Source: Candidatus Omnitrophota bacterium (lineage in GTDB: Bacteria; Omnitrophota; Gorgyraeia; Gygaellales; Profunditerraquicolaceae). Taken from it: a stretch of 64,000 bases of DNA. Positions 55,016 through 63,645 of the stretch are shown piece after piece (within the stretch, counting starts at the first letter, position 1; each line of letters begins with the position of its first letter). Both the position numbers and the translations under genes were made by a program. Where the stretch lies: contig JAQUOD010000007.1 in assembly GCA_028717245.1 (NCBI GenBank), positions 16,988 through 80,987 of the forward strand, read 5' to 3'. The notes under the pieces were generated by a model. It made no database searches. It was not told the DNA's origin and saw nothing but the letters and a program-made list of their open reading frames with translations.

Positions 55016-55832
55016 CCTCCTTATCTGTTTTAATCTCACCGGCTGCCAGTGCCGGCCTATTGAACCTACCTATAAGGAAGAAAACCTCATTTCCACGGTA
55101 AAACAAATCTGCAAGGACGAATATAGCCTGGATGTGGCCACCGGAAGGACCCCCACCACCCTCTGGGTTTATGCGCCCGTGGATAAAATCCTGCATAAAG
55201 ATTATGGAAAACAAGAAGACAAAATATTCGATGATGAGATAACAGAAAAATTAAGGAACATACTCATCACTATCGGCCGGGTATTACTCAGCTCTGACCA
55301 TACCCCGGAATTTTTCGTGCTGGTAATCTCGGATATAAAAATCGGCATAGATTATGCTATTTTCGCCAATGTGCTGGATATCAAAAAGACTTACGCCGAC
55401 TCCATGCCTTTTACCGAAACCCAAAAAAGGTACGTCTTCAGGTTTGCCCTGGCCCCGCAAGCCATAGGAGATAAGACCGGAAAACACATCCAGATATACG
55501 ATATCAAGTTAGGGGATTTTCTCGCCCAACAAATAACGCAAAGGGTCTCTATTATTTTTCAGGGGGAAGATTTTAAGAAATATTTTAAATTAGAAAAAAT
55601 TGACGGGCTCTTCAATAACGGAAATTTTATCTTCGCGTATTCCATACGGGAGACAACCAGGCCTGACAAAGGCATAAACGCGATGAAAGAAATATTGGAT
55701 ACAGCCGCCTATTGCATCAGGACGTATGAATTCGGGGATTTTAACACTCTGGAAATAAACGATTTACTCAGGCAGGACAAGCTGATCTTAAACCGGCAGG
55801 AAATTTTAACCCGGCCCCTTTCTCCTAAGTAG
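54960..55832 (+). CDS. Lipoprotein (start reassigned to the MMKLKL Met; overlaps ftsH 3' end by 56 nt)
   Basis: Signal peptide MMKLKLSLKNSVRPALLFSLLICFNLTGC with lipobox LTGC. No in-frame start codon exists downstream of the ftsH stop. Confidence 0.45.
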   Translation: MMKLKLSLKNSVRPALLFSLLICFNLTGCQCRPIEPTYKEENLISTVKQICKDEYSLDVATGRTPTTLWVYAPVDKILHKDYGKQEDKIFDDEITEKLRNILITIGRVLLSSDHTPEFFVLVISDIKIGIDYAIFANVLDIKKTYADSMPFTETQKRYVFRFALAPQAIGDKTGKHIQIYDIKLGDFLAQQITQRVSIIFQGEDFKKYFKLEKIDGLFNNGNFIFAYSIRETTRPDKGINAMKEILDTAAYCIRTYEFGDFNTLEINDLLRQDKLILNRQEILTRPLSPK

Positions 55833-56427
55833 AGGCCAAAACTCTCCTCCCTTCTATTTTTAATTTACCTTCCGTATAAAGCCTGATTGCTTCAGGATAA
55901 AGACGGTGTTCTATGCTGTGGATTTTTTTCTCTAAAGATTCCGGCGTCTCATCATTCTCTATATTTACGGCTTTTTGTAAAATTATCGGGCCATGGTCCA
56001 TCTTTTCATCCACAAAATGCACGGTAACGCCGGTAACTTTGACCCCATAATCAAAGGCGTCTTTTATTGATTCCGTGCCCTTAAAGGACGGCAGCAAAGC
56101 AGGATGGATATTTAATATGCGGCCCAAATATTTAATCACGAATTCCGGGCTTAAAATGCGCATAAAACCCGCCAGGACAATTAAATCTATTTTATTTTCT
56201 TCTAAATGCCGGATAATTCCGGCTTCAAAATCCTTTTTGTCCGCGCAGTCCTCTCTTTTGAGCAAAGCTACCTTTATCCCTGCCCGTTTTGCCCGCCCAA
56301 TCGCGCCGGCTTTAGGATTATCGCAGACTAAAAGCGCTAAATTGGCCTTGATCCTGCCTTTCTTTACTGCCCTGATGATAGCGCCAAAATTCGTGCCTCT
56401 TCCTGAAGCAAAAACGGCAATATTCAT
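55825..56427 (-). CDS. purN: Phosphoribosylglycinamide formyltransferase
   Basis: MNIAVFASGRGTNF...NIHPALLP motifs. Confidence 0.9.
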   Translation of the reverse strand: MNIAVFASGRGTNFGAIIRAVKKGRIKANLALLVCDNPKAGAIGRAKRAGIKVALLKREDCADKKDFEAGIIRHLEENKIDLIVLAGFMRILSPEFVIKYLGRILNIHPALLPSFKGTESIKDAFDYGVKVTGVTVHFVDEKMDHGPIILQKAVNIENDETPESLEKKIHSIEHRLYPEAIRLYTEGKLKIEGRRVLAST

Positions 56428-56579
56428 TTTTCCAATTCCTTTCTCAAAAACCTTTCATTCACCGGGCCAAAATCTTCGGCCTTATCCGGGTTATTCATCA
56501 AAGAGGCGATTACCGGACGGATATAATTTTTGTTTCCGCAGCAGCCGTGAATGTAATTTACCCGTGGGACTTTTCCCAC
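56424..56579 (-). CDS. Possible small ORF (~51 aa, GTG start) translationally coupled to purN
   Basis: Reads VGKVPRVNYIHGCCGNKNYIRPVIASLMNNPDKAEDFGPVNERFLRKELEK. Its stop TGA overlaps the purN ATG (ATGA). It is in the same frame as, and directly after, the metzincin stop. There is no ATG start and it is below the track cutoff. Confidence 0.2.
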   Translation of the reverse strand: MGKVPRVNYIHGCCGNKNYIRPVIASLMNNPDKAEDFGPVNERFLRKELEK

Positions 56580-56597
56580 TAAATCACCCCACCACTC

Positions 56598-57167
56598 TTA
56601 CGCTTCCTCTTTAGTAGTAGCACAGTTAGGCGGGCCGGGTGGACAAAGCTTGCCACAATCAATGCACTCATCGCGCAGGCCCAAAGAATGCCCTAATTCA
56701 TGCAAGAACCCCTTGGAGAAACTCTGCGCATTAGCATATCTGGCTCTGCCTAAAATAACCAAGGAGAGTTTATCGCGCGAAGATAGCTCCGCGCAGGAAA
56801 CCGAACCTTGCGCATCAATTATAATCAATTTATATTCGGATTTAAGCTTATTCTTGATGCCGTCCAAAAAATCCTGGCGTACCTTTAGCGGCGGAAAGCC
56901 CTGGGCTTTTTTAAAATTCTTCTCTCCTTCATCCAGCGGCATCTGCACCTGCCAAGCATTTATTACATCCGTGAATTCATCAAAGGGCCTGGCCTTTTTT
57001 AATCTCTCCAGAATTACGCCGATATCCTTTGAAGAATCATCCCTATCAGAATAATGCAGCGGGCAAAAGACTAAATTAAGCCGCGGCTTATTCTGCTCTT
57101 TATTTGTCGGCTCTATGGTCCAACTAAGGCCATTATTTAAGAAAGAGGCCAAGAAAAAAAACAACAA
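56598..57167 (-). CDS. Secreted zinc metalloprotease, metzincin-like
   Basis: HELGHSLGLRDE is an HExxHxxGxxD/H motif. There is an N-terminal hydrophobic signal-like segment. Confidence 0.55.
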   Translation of the reverse strand: MLFFFLASFLNNGLSWTIEPTNKEQNKPRLNLVFCPLHYSDRDDSSKDIGVILERLKKARPFDEFTDVINAWQVQMPLDEGEKNFKKAQGFPPLKVRQDFLDGIKNKLKSEYKLIIIDAQGSVSCAELSSRDKLSLVILGRARYANAQSFSKGFLHELGHSLGLRDECIDCGKLCPPGPPNCATTKEEA

Positions 57168-57268
57168 GAATAATTACCTTCATCATATAAATCCCCCGTT
57201 CCACCTGCGATGTGGAACGGGTGTGGAACGATCTATCTTAAAACAATTTCGTAGGATTCGTAGGATTT

Positions 57269-57922
57269 TTATTGTTTCTGACACCATTGCTCGCAAAAAC
57301 CGCCGGTGTAGGTCAATGTGCACGCATTACTGCCGCTGTCAGCCGTGTTTGGTGTTGTATGCTGATGGGTAAATGTGGTTATACAGCCCCCAAAATCAGT
57401 AACTGGAATCCAGCCTGTTGGACACTCTGGAGGAGTACAGGACGATTCACCGGTACAATGATATTGTGTAACATACGCGGCACAAGCCGAACAATTACGC
57501 TGCCACCCACACTTTAAAGAAACCATTGCGCCGCCGCCTCCCTGTGTCACCCAGCCTCCAGCACCATAATAATAGAATGCTCCAGGAGTAGAGTCAGCGG
57601 GATTATTGTCTATATAAACCAACTCACCCTCTTTAGCATTAGATTCCGGGAGTTCACTCTGCGGTTTATAGATTACGCTCCTGGCCACATACAGCTGGCC
57701 ATTCTCCGGCGGCTGGTCATTGGCATCTAAGCTGCCACCGCTATCGTTTGTATCACCCACGGCAAACCTGTTGGTCTGTAGTTGGTTGTAGACACCGTAA
57801 GGCGAAGGGTAATAGGTGGTAATAGTGAAAGTTTCTCCTTCGTCTTCTGGGGCTCCTTGGGCAAGACAAGGCAAACTAAAGAAAACTAAAATGAAACCTA
57901 AGGCTAAACCTTTTTTTAGCAT
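57269..57922 (-). CDS. Secreted Cys-rich protein, paralog B (tandem duplicate)
   Basis: Signal peptide MLKKGLALGFILVFFSLPCLAQG. The N-terminal ~95 aa is nearly identical to the ORF at 58052-58714. The C-terminus is divergent with 10 Cys. Confidence 0.6.
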   Translation of the reverse strand: MLKKGLALGFILVFFSLPCLAQGAPEDEGETFTITTYYPSPYGVYNQLQTNRFAVGDTNDSGGSLDANDQPPENGQLYVARSVIYKPQSELPESNAKEGELVYIDNNPADSTPGAFYYYGAGGWVTQGGGGAMVSLKCGWQRNCSACAAYVTQYHCTGESSCTPPECPTGWIPVTDFGGCITTFTHQHTTPNTADSGSNACTLTYTGGFCEQWCQKQ

Positions 57923-58051
57923 CGGTCACCTCCTGATTATACATTTTACCGGACAGGCCTCTATACACTTACCGCAGGATGTACATTTATTATATTTCTA
58001 TCCCCTATTTCCTTAAAAAATAGAAACGTCCCCTATTTCATATATTAAATG

Positions 58052-58714
58052 CTATTTGCAACAAATCGCCTGGCTGCTGAGATAGTTCCAGCTGCTGGTG
58101 CAATCGCCGAAAGCCCTACTGCACTTTGACGAACACTGCTCTACTCCATCCAGCCTAAGCGACTCAAAAGATTCTAGGCACGATCCACCAGCATAATACG
58201 ATGCGCTGGTGATGGTTACGCTCCAGTTTCCACCCCAGGCAGGCTTATTCCCAAAATCTTGACCAGCACACCCATTCCCGCTTGCGTACGTTACCATGGT
58301 CCATCCCTCTCCCAGCGAGGAACAGGTTGGGTTGTTATCGCTAAAACAAAGACCTTTACATGTCGAATAGGGAATCTCGGCTTCTCCCAATAGTTTCCAA
58401 CCCGAGCTAGTGTAGAAATAAAACTTTTCATCATTACCATAAACCAGTTCGCCTCGTTGAGGGTTGGCAAGCCCATCTTTATTCACAGGGTTGTAGATAA
58501 CACTTCTGGCCACAGCTATCTGTCCCTTCTCCGGCGGCTGGTCAGTATCGCCTACGGCGAACTTATTGGTCTCTAGTTCATTATACGAGCCGTAAGGCGA
58601 AGGGTAATAGGTAGCAATAGTGAAAGTTTCTCCTTCGTCTTCTGGGGCTCCTTGGACAAGACAAGGCAGGATAAACAAAAGTAAAAAACCTAAGATTAAA
58701 CCTTTTTTCAGCAT
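58052..58714 (-). CDS. Secreted Cys-rich protein, paralog A, translationally coupled to rnfB
   Basis: ATG lies 4 nt after the rnfB stop, using an AGGAGGTGA RBS inside rnfB. It has a signal peptide and a C-terminus with 10 Cys and no CxxCH motif. Confidence 0.6.
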   Translation of the reverse strand: MLKKGLILGFLLLFILPCLVQGAPEDEGETFTIATYYPSPYGSYNELETNKFAVGDTDQPPEKGQIAVARSVIYNPVNKDGLANPQRGELVYGNDEKFYFYTSSGWKLLGEAEIPYSTCKGLCFSDNNPTCSSLGEGWTMVTYASGNGCAGQDFGNKPAWGGNWSVTITSASYYAGGSCLESFESLRLDGVEQCSSKCSRAFGDCTSSWNYLSSQAICCK

Positions 58715-58717
58715 CGG

Positions 58718-59503
58718 TCACCTCCTGATAATACATTTTACCGGACAGACCTCTATACACTTACCGCAGGATGTACATTTATTATAGTCTATTATTGCCA
58801 GATTGTCTATGACATGTATAGCGTCAACCGGACAAACCTGTTCGCACTTACGGCAGGCAATACAGCCTACCGGACAGACTAGCCGGGTATCTTTTCCTAA
58901 ATCATGGGAGCTGCAGGCAACATAGACATCATGTGTTACAGGCACAAGGGTGAATAATTTCTTCGGGCAGATGAGCACGCATTTATTACAGGCCTTGCAT
59001 TTATCCTTATCCACTACGGGTAAACCTGTATCAGACATCTTGATGGCGTCAAAAGGGCAAACTCTCACACAACTACCAAATCCTAAACAGCCCCAAACGC
59101 ACTCCTTCTGTCCGCCTAAAACTAAATTAGCAGCCACACAATCTTCTATGCCCGAATACAGGAACCTGTCCTTTACTTTTGTGCCGCCAGCGCAGTGTAA
59201 AACCGCAACTGCCTTTTCTATTTTTTGCAGCTTCCTGCCTAAAGCCTCGGCAATTTGCTTCTTGGTTTCATCGCTGCTGACCCGGCAGGCATCTATTTTC
59301 AGCTTACCGCTGAGCACCGATTCCGCAAAGCCAAAACAACCTGCCCCGCCGCAGGCGCCGCAGTTTGAACCCGGCAGCAAACCATGGATTTTTTCTAAAC
59401 GGGCATCCACATGGACTGCCAGCTTTTTAGAAGCGAGTGCCAAACCCACCCCAAATAAAAGGCCCAAAACACCCAAAGTTAAAATCGGTATCAGAATTTC
59501 CAT
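58718..59503 (-). CDS. rnfB: Rnf electron transport complex subunit B
   Basis: N-terminal TM, a CGACGGAGC...C 'FeS' domain, then several CxxCxxCxxxCP ferredoxin motifs. Confidence 0.85.
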   Translation of the reverse strand: MEILIPILTLGVLGLLFGVGLALASKKLAVHVDARLEKIHGLLPGSNCGACGGAGCFGFAESVLSGKLKIDACRVSSDETKKQIAEALGRKLQKIEKAVAVLHCAGGTKVKDRFLYSGIEDCVAANLVLGGQKECVWGCLGFGSCVRVCPFDAIKMSDTGLPVVDKDKCKACNKCVLICPKKLFTLVPVTHDVYVACSSHDLGKDTRLVCPVGCIACRKCEQVCPVDAIHVIDNLAIIDYNKCTSCGKCIEVCPVKCIIRR

Positions 59504-59622: not shown

Positions 59623-60231
59623 TTAGCGGGAAAATCCATTAAACCCCAAGAAACTCAAACTCATAATTGAGGCAATAATAAAAGCAAGCGGAAATTCTTT
59701 TAAGGCCTTTGGGCAATTACAAAAATCCAGCCTCTCCCTTATCCCCGACATTAAAAGCATGGCCAGGGTATAGCCTAACCCCACGCAGATACCCTGGAAT
59801 AAGGAATAGTAAAAACTGCCTGCTATGGCCTTGCCGTTCCTAAAAAACATATCTATATTTAAAACTGCTACGCCCAATACCGCGCAGTTTACCGTAATCA
59901 AAGGCAGGTATATGCCGAAAAACCTGTATAAGGATGGGCTAATCTTCCTAATAGCCATCTCCACCAACTGCACAAAGGTAGCAATGACTAAAATAAAAGA
60001 TATGGTGCGCAGGTATGTAAGTCCAAAGGGGATGAGTAAAAAACGGTAGATAAACCAGGTAATAATAGATGACATGGTGACTACAAACATTACCGCAAGA
60101 CTCATCGCCAGGGCCGGCTTGGTTTCTTTGGAGATAGCGATAAAAGAGCATAATCCCAAAAAGCGGGAGAGTATGACATTATAGACAAAGACCGCGGAGA
60201 TAAATATGCTTAAAAACTGCGCCACATTCAT
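59623..60231 (-). CDS. rnfA: Rnf complex subunit A
   Basis: ~200 aa polytopic membrane protein of the RnfA/E family, sitting in the A position of the C-D-G-E-A-B order. Confidence 0.8.
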   Translation of the reverse strand: MNVAQFLSIFISAVFVYNVILSRFLGLCSFIAISKETKPALAMSLAVMFVVTMSSIITWFIYRFLLIPFGLTYLRTISFILVIATFVQLVEMAIRKISPSLYRFFGIYLPLITVNCAVLGVAVLNIDMFFRNGKAIAGSFYYSLFQGICVGLGYTLAMLLMSGIRERLDFCNCPKALKEFPLAFIIASIMSLSFLGFNGFSR

Positions 60232-60821
60232 ATTTTCTTACTCTTTAAGACATTAAAAAAGCCGAGCAAAAGCCCAATTACCAAAAGCGCGCCCGAGGGC
60301 ATACCCAAAACAAATGCCGGTTCATAACTTTTAATCAGGTTATGCCCCATAATTGTCCCTGCGCCTAAGAACTCCCTTATGCCGGAGATTAAGATTAAAG
60401 CCAGGGTAAAACCAATGCCCATACCCAATCCGTCAAACAGGGAATTTAAGGCCGTCTGCTTCTGGGCATAAGCCTCAGCGCGGCCTAAGACCATACAATT
60501 GACGACGATTAAAGGCACATAAATGCCCAGGGCGCGGTTTAACGCCGGGCTGTACGCCTTCATAGTCAGTTCAGCAATAGTCACGAAGGTGGCAATGACT
60601 ACAATAAAACAGGGAATGCGGATCCTCGCAGGGACAATATTCTTAATCAGAGAAACAATTATGTTAGAACCTACAAGCACAAAAGTAGCGGCAATACCCA
60701 TGCCTAGGCCATTCGTTACTGACGTAGATACTGCCAGGGTAGGACATAAGCCCAAGGCCAAAACAAAAGTGGGGTTCTCTTTAATAATACCTTTTAAGAA
60801 TTCAGCAAATAAATTTTTCAT
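60228..60821 (-). CDS. rnfE: Rnf complex subunit E
   Basis: RnfA/E family paralogue, assigned by its position between rnfG and rnfA. Confidence 0.8.
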   Translation of the reverse strand: MKNLFAEFLKGIIKENPTFVLALGLCPTLAVSTSVTNGLGMGIAATFVLVGSNIIVSLIKNIVPARIRIPCFIVVIATFVTIAELTMKAYSPALNRALGIYVPLIVVNCMVLGRAEAYAQKQTALNSLFDGLGMGIGFTLALILISGIREFLGAGTIMGHNLIKSYEPAFVLGMPSGALLVIGLLLGFFNVLKSKKI

Positions 60822-61810
60822 CTTGTCCCGTAGATACGATTTTTTGTATACCTGTCAATTATAGGTGTAGCAGCGTTCATCATCAATATAGCATAAGAGA
60901 CACCTTCCGGGTAACCGCCCCAGAGCCGGATTACCGCAGTAATTATCCCGCATCCTATGCCAAAGATAATCTGCCCCTTACGCGTCAGAGGCGAGGTAAC
61001 ATAATCCGTAGCCATAAAAAAAGCGCCCAGGATAAGGCCGCCGGATAAAATATGCAATAGCCAATCGCCGCTAAAAAGGCCTTGCGGAGCGAATATATAG
61101 GTAAATAATCCTACGGTAATTATATAAGGTACAGGGATGTGCCAGGAGATATAACCCTTAATCAAAAGAAACGCGGCACCCAATAAAAGCGCCGCTATAC
61201 AGACCTCGCCGATACAGCCGCCTCTTTTGCCTAAAAATAAATCCAGATAGGAGATGTTTTCTAACACCTTGCCTTCTTTTAATAAGGCAAGGGGCGTAGC
61301 TGAAGTGATGGCGTCAAAATTTAAGGGCTTGGTAAACCCCGCTCTTCCTCCAAATATACTGTAACTGTGAAGGAAGGGCGGGGTAAAATTAGTCAGATAT
61401 TTCGGCCAGGAGGCCATCAGGAATACCCTGCCCACCAGCGCAGGATTAAAGATATTCTGCCCCAAGCCGCCGAAAACCTGTTTACCTATAATCACGGCAA
61501 AAAACGAACCAATAACGGGTATCCAGAAAGGAACTTTAGGCGGCAGATTATAGGCAAGCAATAATCCCGTAAGCACTGCGCTGCCGTCTAAAATAGTGAT
61601 TTTTCTTCTGGTGAATACCTCTATCAACCACTCTGCGGCTACTGCCGAAAAAATACCTAAGATAATCACCCGGAGCGCATCTAAACCAAAAATAAAAACA
61701 CCGGCTGCACCAGCGGGTATCAGACTGGCTACTACTAGCCACATAATCTTACTGACTGATTCATCTTTATGCAGGTGCGGGGAAATAGAAACAATAAACT
61801 TATTTTGCAT
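60818..61810 (-). CDS. rnfD: Rnf complex subunit D
   Basis: 330 aa polytopic membrane protein of the NqrB/RnfD family, with the C-terminal SGGL...T FMN-attachment region. Confidence 0.8.
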   Translation of the reverse strand: MQNKFIVSISPHLHKDESVSKIMWLVVASLIPAGAAGVFIFGLDALRVIILGIFSAVAAEWLIEVFTRRKITILDGSAVLTGLLLAYNLPPKVPFWIPVIGSFFAVIIGKQVFGGLGQNIFNPALVGRVFLMASWPKYLTNFTPPFLHSYSIFGGRAGFTKPLNFDAITSATPLALLKEGKVLENISYLDLFLGKRGGCIGEVCIAALLLGAAFLLIKGYISWHIPVPYIITVGLFTYIFAPQGLFSGDWLLHILSGGLILGAFFMATDYVTSPLTRKGQIIFGIGCGIITAVIRLWGGYPEGVSYAILMMNAATPIIDRYTKNRIYGTR

Positions 61811-62354
61811 TTTTTGTTAACTCCTGGATGTCTTTTAATTTTTCCCGGACCGAATCCATTACTGCCTTGGAAGAAATAGTAGCGCCGGTAATCGCCTGGA
61901 CTTCGCTTAATCCTCGGATATCTTTGTTGCTGAACTGGCTGGTAAAGGCAGGCTGGGCCACGCGGCTCCCCAGGCCAGGGGTTTCATTCTGGTTTAATAT
62001 CTTGATATTAGTAATCTTTCCGTCGCTGGTTACCCCTGCCATAGTTTCGATCTGGCTGGAATAGCCTTTAGCGGATGCCTTAAATACTGTGCCGATTATT
62101 TTTTCCTGTTCATCGTAGGCATTATAATAAACAATTGCCTCGCCTGATTTCGCTGCCTCAAAACGAACGGCTTGCGGCATTACTTCCTTAAGGCCTGCCT
62201 CTTCTTCGGCCTGGGCCTGGGCAATAATCCTGGATTTAGTCAGAGAATTCACCGATGCCAAAAGCCCGGCTGCTACCGCGCATATTAACGCCAGGATAAG
62301 ACCGTAACGCAACATCTCTTTCACCCCGCTCTTCCTCCTTATCTCTACCCCCAC
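61800..62354 (-). CDS. rnfG: Rnf complex subunit G (FMN-binding)
   Basis: Single N-terminal TM and a C-terminal TGATISSKAV FMN-binding motif. Confidence 0.8.
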   Translation of the reverse strand: MGVEIRRKSGVKEMLRYGLILALICAVAAGLLASVNSLTKSRIIAQAQAEEEAGLKEVMPQAVRFEAAKSGEAIVYYNAYDEQEKIIGTVFKASAKGYSSQIETMAGVTSDGKITNIKILNQNETPGLGSRVAQPAFTSQFSNKDIRGLSEVQAITGATISSKAVMDSVREKLKDIQELTKNAK

Positions 62355-62373
62355 CCGTCAGGAAGGGCGGGGT

Positions 62374-63645
62374 TCATTTTATCGCCTCTAATTTCGCCCT
62401 TTTTATATGTTGGACTAACCTGATATTTGCCGGGCAGACATAGTTACATAAACCGCATTCAATACAGTCAAGGGCGCCGTAAATCTTAGCCTGCGGCCAA
62501 AGCTCTTTTTGAGAAGCCAAACTTATTAAAGTGGGCATAAGAAATACCGGACATTCCCTGACGCAGGCGCCGCAACGGATACAAAATTCTTCTTCCTGCA
62601 AGGCAGCCTCTTTTTTATTTAATAAGATAACTCCTGTGGTAGATTTTATCACCGGCACATCCAGCGTATATTGGGCGATCCCCATCATCGGTCCGCCCAT
62701 AATTACCTTTACGGGTTCTTCTTTTAAGGGTGTGCAGAAATCAATTAACTCTTTAATAGGCGTGCCGATTTTTGCTAAAAGATTCTTAGGCTTTGAGAGG
62801 CAACTGCCTGTTACCGTAACCACGCGTTCGTATAAAGGCTTATTCTTATAAACTGCCTCATAAATAGCAAAACAGGTGGCAACGTTATGCACGGCCACGC
62901 CGATATCAAAGGGAAGCTTAGCCTGCGGGACTTCTTTATTCAGGATATTTTTTATTAATTGCTTCTCTCCTCCTTGCGGATAAGCTGATTTTAAAACTTT
63001 TACTGCGAACTGTGAACTATGAACTGTGAACTCTTTTATCGCTTCAGGCTTATTATCCTCAATAGCTATATAAACTTTCTCAACCCCCAAACATCTTGCG
63101 ACAAGCCCTACGCCTTGTAAAATCTCTTTAGTCTTCTCTACCATCAAGCGGTAATCGCCGGTCAGGTAAGGCTCGCATTCTGCGCCGTTAATAATTAGGG
63201 TATCTACCGGTTTAGGGGGATTAAGTTTTATATGCGTGGGAAAACTTGCCCCGCCCATACCCACAATACCCGCTTCAAAAACAAGATTACGAATTTGCTC
63301 TGGCGTCAAATTCTCTATTTCGGTTTGTGATTTAGGGATAGCAGGATATGCTTTATCGCTTCGCTCACCATCAATAATTATTGACTTACAGCGGCCTGAA
63401 AACGGATGAGGCCAATCTTGAATTGAGATAACTTTACCCGATATGGACGCATGTATGGGGCTGGACACATTCGCCTGGACCCCGGCAATCTTCTGGCCGG
63501 CCAAAACAGTATCGCCTATTTTTACTTCAGGGCTGCAGATCCTACCTATATGCTGGCTTAAAGGGATATAGGCCCTGCCGGGTGAGGGCATCTTCTCTAT
63601 GGCCTTATTTTCCGTTTCTAGCTTATACTCTTCTAATCTAACCAT
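62374..63645 (-). CDS. rnfC: Rnf complex subunit C
   Basis: Two 4Fe-4S motifs (CIRCGACVRECP and CIECGLCNYVCP) and a GGASFPTH NADH/FMN region. It contains an in-frame GAACTGT-type repeat. Confidence 0.85.
   Translation of the reverse strand: MVRLEEYKLETENKAIEKMPSPGRAYIPLSQHIGRICSPEVKIGDTVLAGQKIAGVQANVSSPIHASISGKVISIQDWPHPFSGRCKSIIIDGERSDKAYPAIPKSQTEIENLTPEQIRNLVFEAGIVGMGGASFPTHIKLNPPKPVDTLIINGAECEPYLTGDYRLMVEKTKEILQGVGLVARCLGVEKVYIAIEDNKPEAIKEFTVHSSQFAVKVLKSAYPQGGEKQLIKNILNKEVPQAKLPFDIGVAVHNVATCFAIYEAVYKNKPLYERVVTVTGSCLSKPKNLLAKIGTPIKELIDFCTPLKEEPVKVIMGGPMMGIAQYTLDVPVIKSTTGVILLNKKEAALQEEEFCIRCGACVRECPVFLMPTLISLASQKELWPQAKIYGALDCIECGLCNYVCPANIRLVQHIKRAKLEAIK
63007..63033. repeat. In-frame heptanucleotide repeat GAACTGT/GAACTAT x4 inside rnfC
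   Basis: Encodes EFTVHSSQFAV. Confidence 0.75.

Follow-up and report, generated by a model that had tools for sequence, protein, structure and literature searches.

Tandem cysteine-rich exported proteins behind an rnf operon probably belong to an Omnitrophota family of variable binding proteins that is targeted by diversity-generating retroelements in relatives

Does a gene that begins directly behind the last gene of an rnf operon, and that takes its ribosome-binding site from within it, belong to the Rnf system? The question is raised by a 64,000-nucleotide stretch of contig JAQUOD010000007.1 (assembly GCA_028717245.1) of a Candidatus Omnitrophota bacterium, here called the window, in which rnfB is followed on the same strand by two adjacent genes for small, exported, cysteine-rich proteins, paralogues A and B. 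An earlier, sequence-only reading had made A and B part of the Rnf system and left their combination of a conserved N-terminus with a hypervariable C-terminus unexplained; an extracellular redox partner, an adhesin and a diversifying surface or toxin-like protein had been offered as possibilities. Comparison with relatives favours a diversifying surface or adhesin-like protein. At a probability of roughly 0.6 in our estimate, A and B are tandem paralogues from an Omnitrophota family of Sec-exported, disulfide-rich binding or adhesin proteins, which came to lie behind rnf by accident. Both are on record as 'hypothetical protein' in a single Candidatus Omnitrophica metagenome-assembled genome (MAG), together with a third paralogue, P0002; in the order in which the group is listed, A, B and P0002 correspond to PHC54_05075, PHC54_05080 and PHC54_04975.

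The layout that suggested an Rnf connection is as it had been described. The end of rnfB reads ATC AGG AGG TGA, the ATG of A follows three nucleotides (ccg) past the TGA, and AGGAGGTGA provides the last rnfB codons and the Shine-Dalgarno sequence of A at once. Because the two genes are only 3 nucleotides apart and a scan of the gap predicted no terminator, co-transcription of A with rnfB is plausible; a promoter-like site inside the 3' end of rnfB, found by pattern match alone 67 nucleotides upstream of the start codon of A, is the alternative source of a transcript. The position behind rnfB would thus give A probable read-through transcription and translational coupling, with no functional tie to Rnf. 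NCBIfam models give the order of the operon as rnfC-rnfG-rnfD-rnfE-rnfA-rnfB, correcting the rnfCDGEAB stated earlier; the part upstream of rnfB covers 59623-63645 on the minus strand and ends 119 nucleotides before it.

If A and B were extracellular or periplasmic redox partners hard-wired into the operon, the 3-nucleotide gap, the Shine-Dalgarno sequence inside rnfB, the lack of a predicted terminator and the ten cysteines of each protein would all be in keeping with such a role. The comparative data largely refute this explanation, which we regard as highly improbable. A tblastn search with all six subunits (RnfA-E and RnfG) covered 126 sources holding a family gene or its partner (79 GTDB, 43 metagenome and 4 further loci), and found rnf genes in the window alone; none of the 125 other loci has any, and the proposed survey for rnfB-adjacent homologues, once run, therefore yielded none. 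P0002 lies on another contig, downstream of a gene whose product is read as the C-terminal part of an enzyme resembling isopropylmalate or citramalate synthase. Since rnf is absent from the related loci and P0002 stands beside an unrelated gene, the adjacency to rnfB is peculiar to this genome. No redox-cofactor motif (heme CxxCH, Fe-S or flavin site) and no Pfam or NCBIfam domain was found in A or B. A single CxxC occurs in B and is not conserved in A, the cysteine positions differ between the two proteins, and their homologues are retroelement targets or fibre-like proteins.

What A and B share with these homologues is an invariant motif behind the signal peptide, TITTYYPSPYGSYNEL. Both paralogues carry the pattern [TS]I[TA]TYYPSPYG[SV]Y no more than about 10 residues behind the signal peptide; its invariant columns persist across sets of 24 and 115 sequences, and the residues Y36 Y37 P38 S39 P40 Y41 G42 do not vary. 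Single-sequence searching returned 24 homologues, and a profile search (E <= 1e-5) extended the family to at least 1,499 protein clusters. The members are unnamed or annotated as 'hypothetical protein', and every organism name given is Omnitrophica or Omnitrophota. In a scan for YYPSPYG[SV]Y that took one genome from each GTDB species, 289 stretches matched, 240 of which were confirmed as relatives; the 80 listed among these come from Omnitrophota MAGs or from mislabelled 'uncultured Planctomycetales' MAGs.

The family consensus begins with a signal peptide ending in ..FA/E(E), [TS]ITTYYPSPYG[SV]YNEL and an optional TNKFAVGDT..DQPP segment, and continues with GE[LI]vY....LYxYNGSxWVxQGGG, C..C[PS]xGWT and a variable cysteine-rich stretch of 40-100 amino acids that ends in C.C.[KQ]. 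The same N-terminal module stands at the head of much longer proteins (300-614 amino acids), in which the stalk motif G[NS]VGIGT..P..KL.V.G is repeated. Peptidase_S74, an intramolecular-chaperone domain, scores above the Pfam threshold in 6 of 10 such long members, and one of them has PHROG tail-fibre matches down to 5e-29. Some short members carry a weak precomputed match to PF26696 'PTL_trimer'. The module thus heads a repertoire of exported, tail-fibre-like and probably trimeric proteins, of which A and B are the short form. Because it heads long tail-fibre-like proteins with S74 domains, TITTYYPSPYGSYNEL, placed behind a cleavable signal peptide, would probably anchor an oligomeric fibre or form its base; next would come a short beta stalk (GELVY...LYxYNGSxWVxQGGG), and the hypervariable cysteine-rich head would probably form the ligand-binding tip. 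Attachment to other cells is possibly the function of A and B. Literature searches returned no papers for the motif, for PF26696 or for PTL_trimer, and a 2026 preprint on Omnitrophota does not mention the family. A branch with fibre-like members of 300-530 amino acids lies among housekeeping genes in the conserved order smc, GAF-like gene, family gene, recA, recX, alaS (L016, L021, L025, L031, L033, L038, L042, L045 and L075), which hints at a core fibre gene that is orthologous across many Omnitrophota.

As proteins, A and B follow this plan closely. Each starts with a signal peptide of the classical n-h-c type with an AxA-like site (..FA/EE or QGA/PE). In A it is followed by TIATYYPSPYGSYNEL, a GELVY..FYFYTSSGW stalk and a head of 116 amino acids with 10 cysteines ending in ICCK; B has the same N-terminal module and another 10-cysteine head, of the subclass '...GYCE[RQH]WC[YQ]K'. 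Each mature protein has 10 cysteines, where about ten had been counted in each C-terminal half, and heme CxxCH motifs and pilin signals are absent from both sequences, as had been noted. A type IV pilin or pseudopilin was rejected on the lack of a class III signal and of a G-F-T-L-I-E or prepilin motif. A lipoprotein was likewise rejected, the cysteine at -5 of the signal peptide (LPC) being preceded by proline and not conserved in the family. Near-identity of the paralogues over about 95 amino acids was an overstatement: in the BLASTP alignment, which spans 119 columns and has gaps at 18 positions, identity is 60%, and the first 58 amino acids reach about 81%. The motifs VARSVIYKP and VARSVIYNP are present as reported. 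The description of the C-termini as completely different holds insofar as BLASTP cannot align them; it fails in that, within the family alignment, both heads keep the scaffold C..C[PS]xGW[TI] ... G..C..C.K. Searches of Pfam, NCBIfam and PHROG with A and B gave zero domain matches, Peptidase_S74 included, and a PDB sequence profile search gave noise only. An AlphaFold2 model of B is all-beta with long hairpins (predicted local distance difference test, pLDDT, 78.5; predicted template modelling score, pTM, 0.48), and its YYPSPYG segment has low confidence in the monomer.

The head of A is rare, with 3 credible relatives among 1.84 billion representative proteins. One of the three has the YYPSPYG module; the other two, P0245 (L126:1010-1864) and P0247, carry an A-like head (38-41% identity) behind a transmembrane helix and the motif AWTEPT..PP.GNV..PLN, and P0245 also has a Dockerin_1 domain. 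The same head behind different N-termini indicates that heads are exchanged between anchor modules. The AWTEPT..PP.GNV..PLN motif resembles one common in surface proteins of Patescibacteria, the Candidate Phyla Radiation (CPR).

A source of such variability is found in the relatives, where diversity-generating retroelements (DGRs) act on family genes. Homologues of the reverse transcriptase (RT) and/or of Avd were found by tblastn in 14 related loci, both of them in 8, and in many loci an RT gene and a four-helix Avd-like gene occupy the gap between the family gene and the gene of a secreted zincin, the conserved partner described below. The 3' end of the family gene, the variable region (VR), is repeated 0.3-1.25 kb downstream as a template repeat (TR), and nearly all mismatches coincide with adenines of the TR (13 of 14 in L084, 5 of 6 in L104, about 5 of 7 in L018 and 5 of 8 in L093). 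This adenine bias marks the relatives as DGR variable proteins in which the last 40 or so codons of the head are hypermutated. In an alignment with the family members of L084, L018 and L104 that are linked to a DGR, A and B share the N-terminal module, the stalk, C..CPSGWT and the terminal C.C.[KQ], and their divergent tails fall at the VR position. Most cellular DGR targets have either a transmembrane domain or a signal peptide at the N-terminus, binding domains and a C-terminal VR, and a DGR target is typically a protein that binds a ligand or partner (Roux et al., 2021; PMC8144416). The pairing of conserved N-terminus and hypervariable C-terminus is a family-wide feature, for which retroelement mutagenesis accounts in relatives.

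Complete cassettes between family gene and zincin gene lie at L084:2548-5771, L093:174-3205, L104:2826-5732 and L018:5899-8660, and further ones in L019, L089, L091 and L116. After the VR stop codon, three cassette loci have the conserved sequence CCAGTAGTTAA, a T-run and CTGG[TA]ATC[TC]GGTAT. In L081 a gene of the 23S_rRNA_IVP/bAvd type (2214-2594) lies 5.4 kb upstream of a family-zincin pair with no RT nearby; it may be left over from a DGR or encode an unrelated four-helix-bundle protein. A literature search on DGRs together with metallopeptidases found neither term in the titles or abstracts of the papers that it returned.

Could a distant DGR elsewhere in the genome supply a TR in trans and hypermutate the heads of A and/or B, leaving them orphan targets in the window? 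Their close relatives are proven targets with the VR at the aligned position, and B sits in the target slot directly upstream of the zincin gene. B is also followed by a strong hairpin, with a 10 bp stem of which 7 pairs are GC and a z of -3.8 for folding as DNA; a hairpin downstream of the VR is reported as a feature of DGR targets (Guo et al., 2011, as cited in PMC8144416). The window itself holds no RT or Avd homologue detectable by tblastn and no TR-like repeat of either 3' half. The lone YVDD, the only RT motif in the window, sits in an ordinary enzyme, and a DGR was rejected for these 64 kb. Neither A nor B has in its 3' flank the sequence that is conserved after the VR in DGR-bearing loci (CCAGTAGTTAA, the T-run and CTGG[TA]ATC[TC]GGTAT), and the two heads differ by non-homologous sequence and not by substitutions at adenine sites. 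No classical DGR hairpin was found after the VR in the DGR-bearing relatives, so the hairpin after B is read as terminator-like. Mutagenesis in trans thus appears unlikely, and in this genome diversity would come from gene duplication and from recombination among paralogues.

The second regular element of these loci is the secreted, M64-like zincin encoded directly downstream of the family gene. The open reading frame (ORF) 56598-57167 downstream of B carries the motif HELGHSLGLRDE, and its homologues adjoin a family gene in 8 GTDB loci. Among the metagenome loci that have a zincin gene and enough upstream sequence to be tested, a family gene lies upstream on the same strand in 20 of 27, immediately upstream in 14. 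The zincin has homologues in 224 clusters (about 256 amino acids, 52-67% identity among the best 120 listed), which are unnamed or 'hypothetical'; every organism name given is Omnitrophota or Omnitrophica. The zinc site HExxHxxGxxDE is present, and HELGHSLGLRDE is invariant in 118 homologues. An AlphaFold2 model based on a 118-sequence alignment (pLDDT 89.4, pTM 0.87) matched BF3526 (9qdi, 4df9), BACOVA_00663 (3p1v) and the IgA protease of Thomasclavelia ramosa (9ekk) in Foldseek with probability 1.0 and template modelling scores of 0.61-0.68. The Pfam family PF09471 scores below threshold for this protein (14.3 bits; gathering cut-off 26). Neither the YYPSPYG module nor its M64-like zincin partner is in any paper returned by the literature searches.

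In the window, the zincin gene is broken and both family genes are intact. Judged by the 118-sequence consensus, the signal peptide that begins with ATGATG at 57186 is put in another frame than the rest of the protein by a +1 shift at a T8 run (57154-57161), and an in-frame TAA (56598-56600) stands before the conserved C-terminal segment, 56424-56597. This segment, WWGDLVGK..RVNYI.GCCGNK..., runs on past the TAA in the same frame to 56424, and the stop codon of the zincin gene overlaps the purN start (ATGA). The breaks reflect either a decaying gene or sequencing errors. In another MAG (L013, JAZDLA010000073.1), compared with window positions 55825-57922, PurN is 80% and the zincin 87% identical. 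The gene order there is zincin, family gene, purN, as against family gene, family gene, zincin, purN in the window, so the region upstream of purN has been rearranged between relatives.

A small, secreted, disulfide-rich, fast-evolving protein that is tightly linked to a secreted metallopeptidase might also be a toxin or bacteriocin-like effector, with the zincin as the protease that matures it or as its co-effector against prey or host cells, the more so as predation or dependence on a host has been proposed for Omnitrophota. Toxin and immunity domains were not found, however, and the N-terminal module is common to structural proteins of tail-fibre type. DGR targets are typically binding proteins (PMC8144416), and A and B have stayed intact beside a broken zincin. 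An effector role for A and B is consequently doubtful in our judgement, and binding or adhesin proteins remain the preferred reading.

The duplication of A and B together with the 3' end of rnfB is real and far beyond chance. The remnant upstream of B (57923-57994) is 97% identical to 58715-58786 over 72 nucleotides (blastn), reads NKCTSCGKCIEACPVKCIIRR* and keeps the same Shine-Dalgarno sequence, in agreement with the copy of the rnfB 3' end that had been reported there. A repeat search extended this to a direct repeat (57894-57994 and 58686-58786) with 95% identity over 101 nucleotides. From 5' to 3', DNA identity between the A and B copies falls from 95% over 101 nucleotides to about 84-85% over 142 and 81% over 57, after which there is none. 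The tail of the spacer, 57995-58051, is unique and AT-rich, and a single weak AU-rich hairpin is predicted in the spacer as a whole. The spacer retains the TATAAT upstream of B, without a -35 element; the duplicated 72 nucleotides begin exactly at the -10 hexamer of the promoter-like match inside rnfB.

The paralogues are mosaics. In a three-way DNA alignment with P0002, A and B are 92-97% identical to each other in the rnfB remnant and the signal peptide, the next block of B (the middle of the N-terminal domain) is 92% identical to P0002, and in the block after that A is 78% identical to P0002. Where A and B are compared with each other, the non-coding rnfB remnant (97%) is better conserved than the coding N-terminus (84%), the reverse of the pattern expected if a simple duplication had happened long ago and the copies had then drifted. 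An unequal crossover between diverged alleles or strains is therefore the favoured route: with its upstream breakpoint inside rnfB, it would have stacked two alleles in tandem and carried along the 72 nucleotides that supply a Shine-Dalgarno sequence and a -10-like element. Before the crossover, each 72-nucleotide copy would have been the end of a functional rnfB and subject to purifying selection, which would explain the conservation of these 72 nucleotides as well as the stacking of two different heads.

The tandem could instead have arisen in assembly, if two strain alleles of one rnfB-adjacent gene had been joined via the 5' repeat. The source is a MAG, the repeat has its boundary in a conserved gene, and the junctions were found in no second, independent assembly: the exact protein sequences of A, B and RnfB are not on record elsewhere, and the exact junction pattern had 0 matches in metagenome contigs. 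The longest exact run common to the A and B copies is about 36 nucleotides in the alignment, too short to mislead typical assembly k-mers, so that a collapsed or mis-joined repeat is unlikely. The junction from A to the remnant is flanked by unique sequence on both sides, and tandem family genes occur in at least eight other loci (L007, L009, L015, L028, L043, L063, L072 and L113). An artefact would, on this evidence, be very surprising. The coordinates of the locus are collected in Table 1.

Table 1. Features between the zincin gene and rnfB; positions count from the first letter of the window.
Feature	Position	Strand	Description or basis
rnfB	58718-59503	minus	NCBIfam rnfB models and Pfam Fer4/FeS matches; last gene of rnfC-G-D-E-A-B
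Sigma-70-like promoter match TAGACA-17-TATAAT	58781-58809	minus	consensus scan, 11/12 positions
Repeat copy 1	58686-58786	minus	final 72 nt of rnfB, Shine-Dalgarno sequence and first codons of A
Paralogue A	58052-58714	minus	ORF of 220 amino acids
A-B spacer (129 nt)	57923-58051	minus	57-nt tail (57995-58051), then 72-nt rnfB remnant (57923-57994)
Paralogue B	57269-57922	minus	ORF of 217 amino acids
GC-rich hairpin, terminator-like	57195-57221	minus	between B and the zincin gene; followed by GGATTTATAT
Disrupted M64/IgA-peptidase-like zincin gene	56424-57186	minus	motif HELGHSLGLRDE; homologues and predicted fold

Among known systems, A and B come closest to the cellular DGR targets, such as TvpA of Treponema and LdtA of Legionella, which likewise join an N-terminal signal peptide or anchor to a C-terminal hypervariable binding region (Roux et al., 2021; PMC8144416). 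Bona fide targets of this kind exist among the direct homologues of A and B, with an adenine-mutated VR beside RT and Avd, whereas the copies in the window lack RT, Avd and TR, and their heads differ by non-homologous replacement. The model of B gave no significant Foldseek match in PDB or BFVD by which a C-type-lectin or a fibre fold could be assigned. Phage-type tail-fibre proteins with S74 domains offer a second likeness: the long family members also combine S74 with G[NS]VGIGT..P..KL.V.G stalk repeats and PHROG tail-fibre matches, and the GELVY..LYxYNGSxW hairpin resembles fibre motifs, for which hints of DUF2793 and PTL_trimer give weak support. In contrast, A and B are about 200 amino acids long and lack S74 and stalk repeats, and all family members have Sec signal peptides, which makes them exported cellular proteins and not parts of virions. 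The zincin shares HExxHxxGxxDE and the catalytic fold with the M64 peptidases (IgA peptidase of Thomasclavelia ramosa, BF3526 and BACOVA_00663), but is minimal (about 230 mature residues, no accessory domains), restricted to Omnitrophota and syntenic with the gene of a variable protein.

A more distant analogy is offered by the sorting pairs PEP-CTERM/exosortase, LPXTG/sortase and the C-terminal domain of the type IX secretion system with PorU. As there, a short invariant motif is found on hundreds of otherwise unrelated exported proteins of one phylum, and the gene of a conserved enzyme repeatedly adjoins one motif-bearing gene. Unlike in these pairs, YYPSPYG would be an N-terminal signal, placed after the signal peptide, and the presumed enzyme is a soluble zincin and not a membrane transpeptidase. 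By this analogy, TITTYYPSPYGSYNEL might be a phylum-specific sorting or anchoring signal for surface fibres and variable binding proteins, the M64-like zincin its dedicated processing enzyme, and the DGRs might have been plugged in to diversify the tip that attaches to host or prey. We offer this as a speculative proposal that is rather unlikely to hold as it stands.

Several points weigh against placing A and B among binding or adhesin proteins that vary by duplication and recombination. They have no Pfam, NCBIfam or PHROG match and no S74 domain, and the model of B, which is of moderate confidence (pTM 0.48), has no significant Foldseek match in PDB or BFVD. The negative result for a DGR covers the 64-kb window, and a remote DGR could act in trans. 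The breaks in the zincin gene may be sequencing errors.

Omnitrophota are nanobacteria that have not been cultivated and are presumed to prey on other cells or to depend on them. In this group, the locus leads to a large family, as yet without a name and comprising at least 1,499 protein clusters, in which one invariant N-terminal module is combined with either a tail-fibre-like shaft or a hypervariable cysteine-rich head. One branch of this family is the preferred target of DGR hypermutation and lies in synteny with a minimal M64-type metallopeptidase; if a DGR is absent, this branch would diversify by stacking of paralogues and by recombination. The analysis removes a tempting but unsupported tie to energy conservation by Rnf, and provides in its place concrete candidates for host-attachment proteins and for an enzyme-substrate pair.

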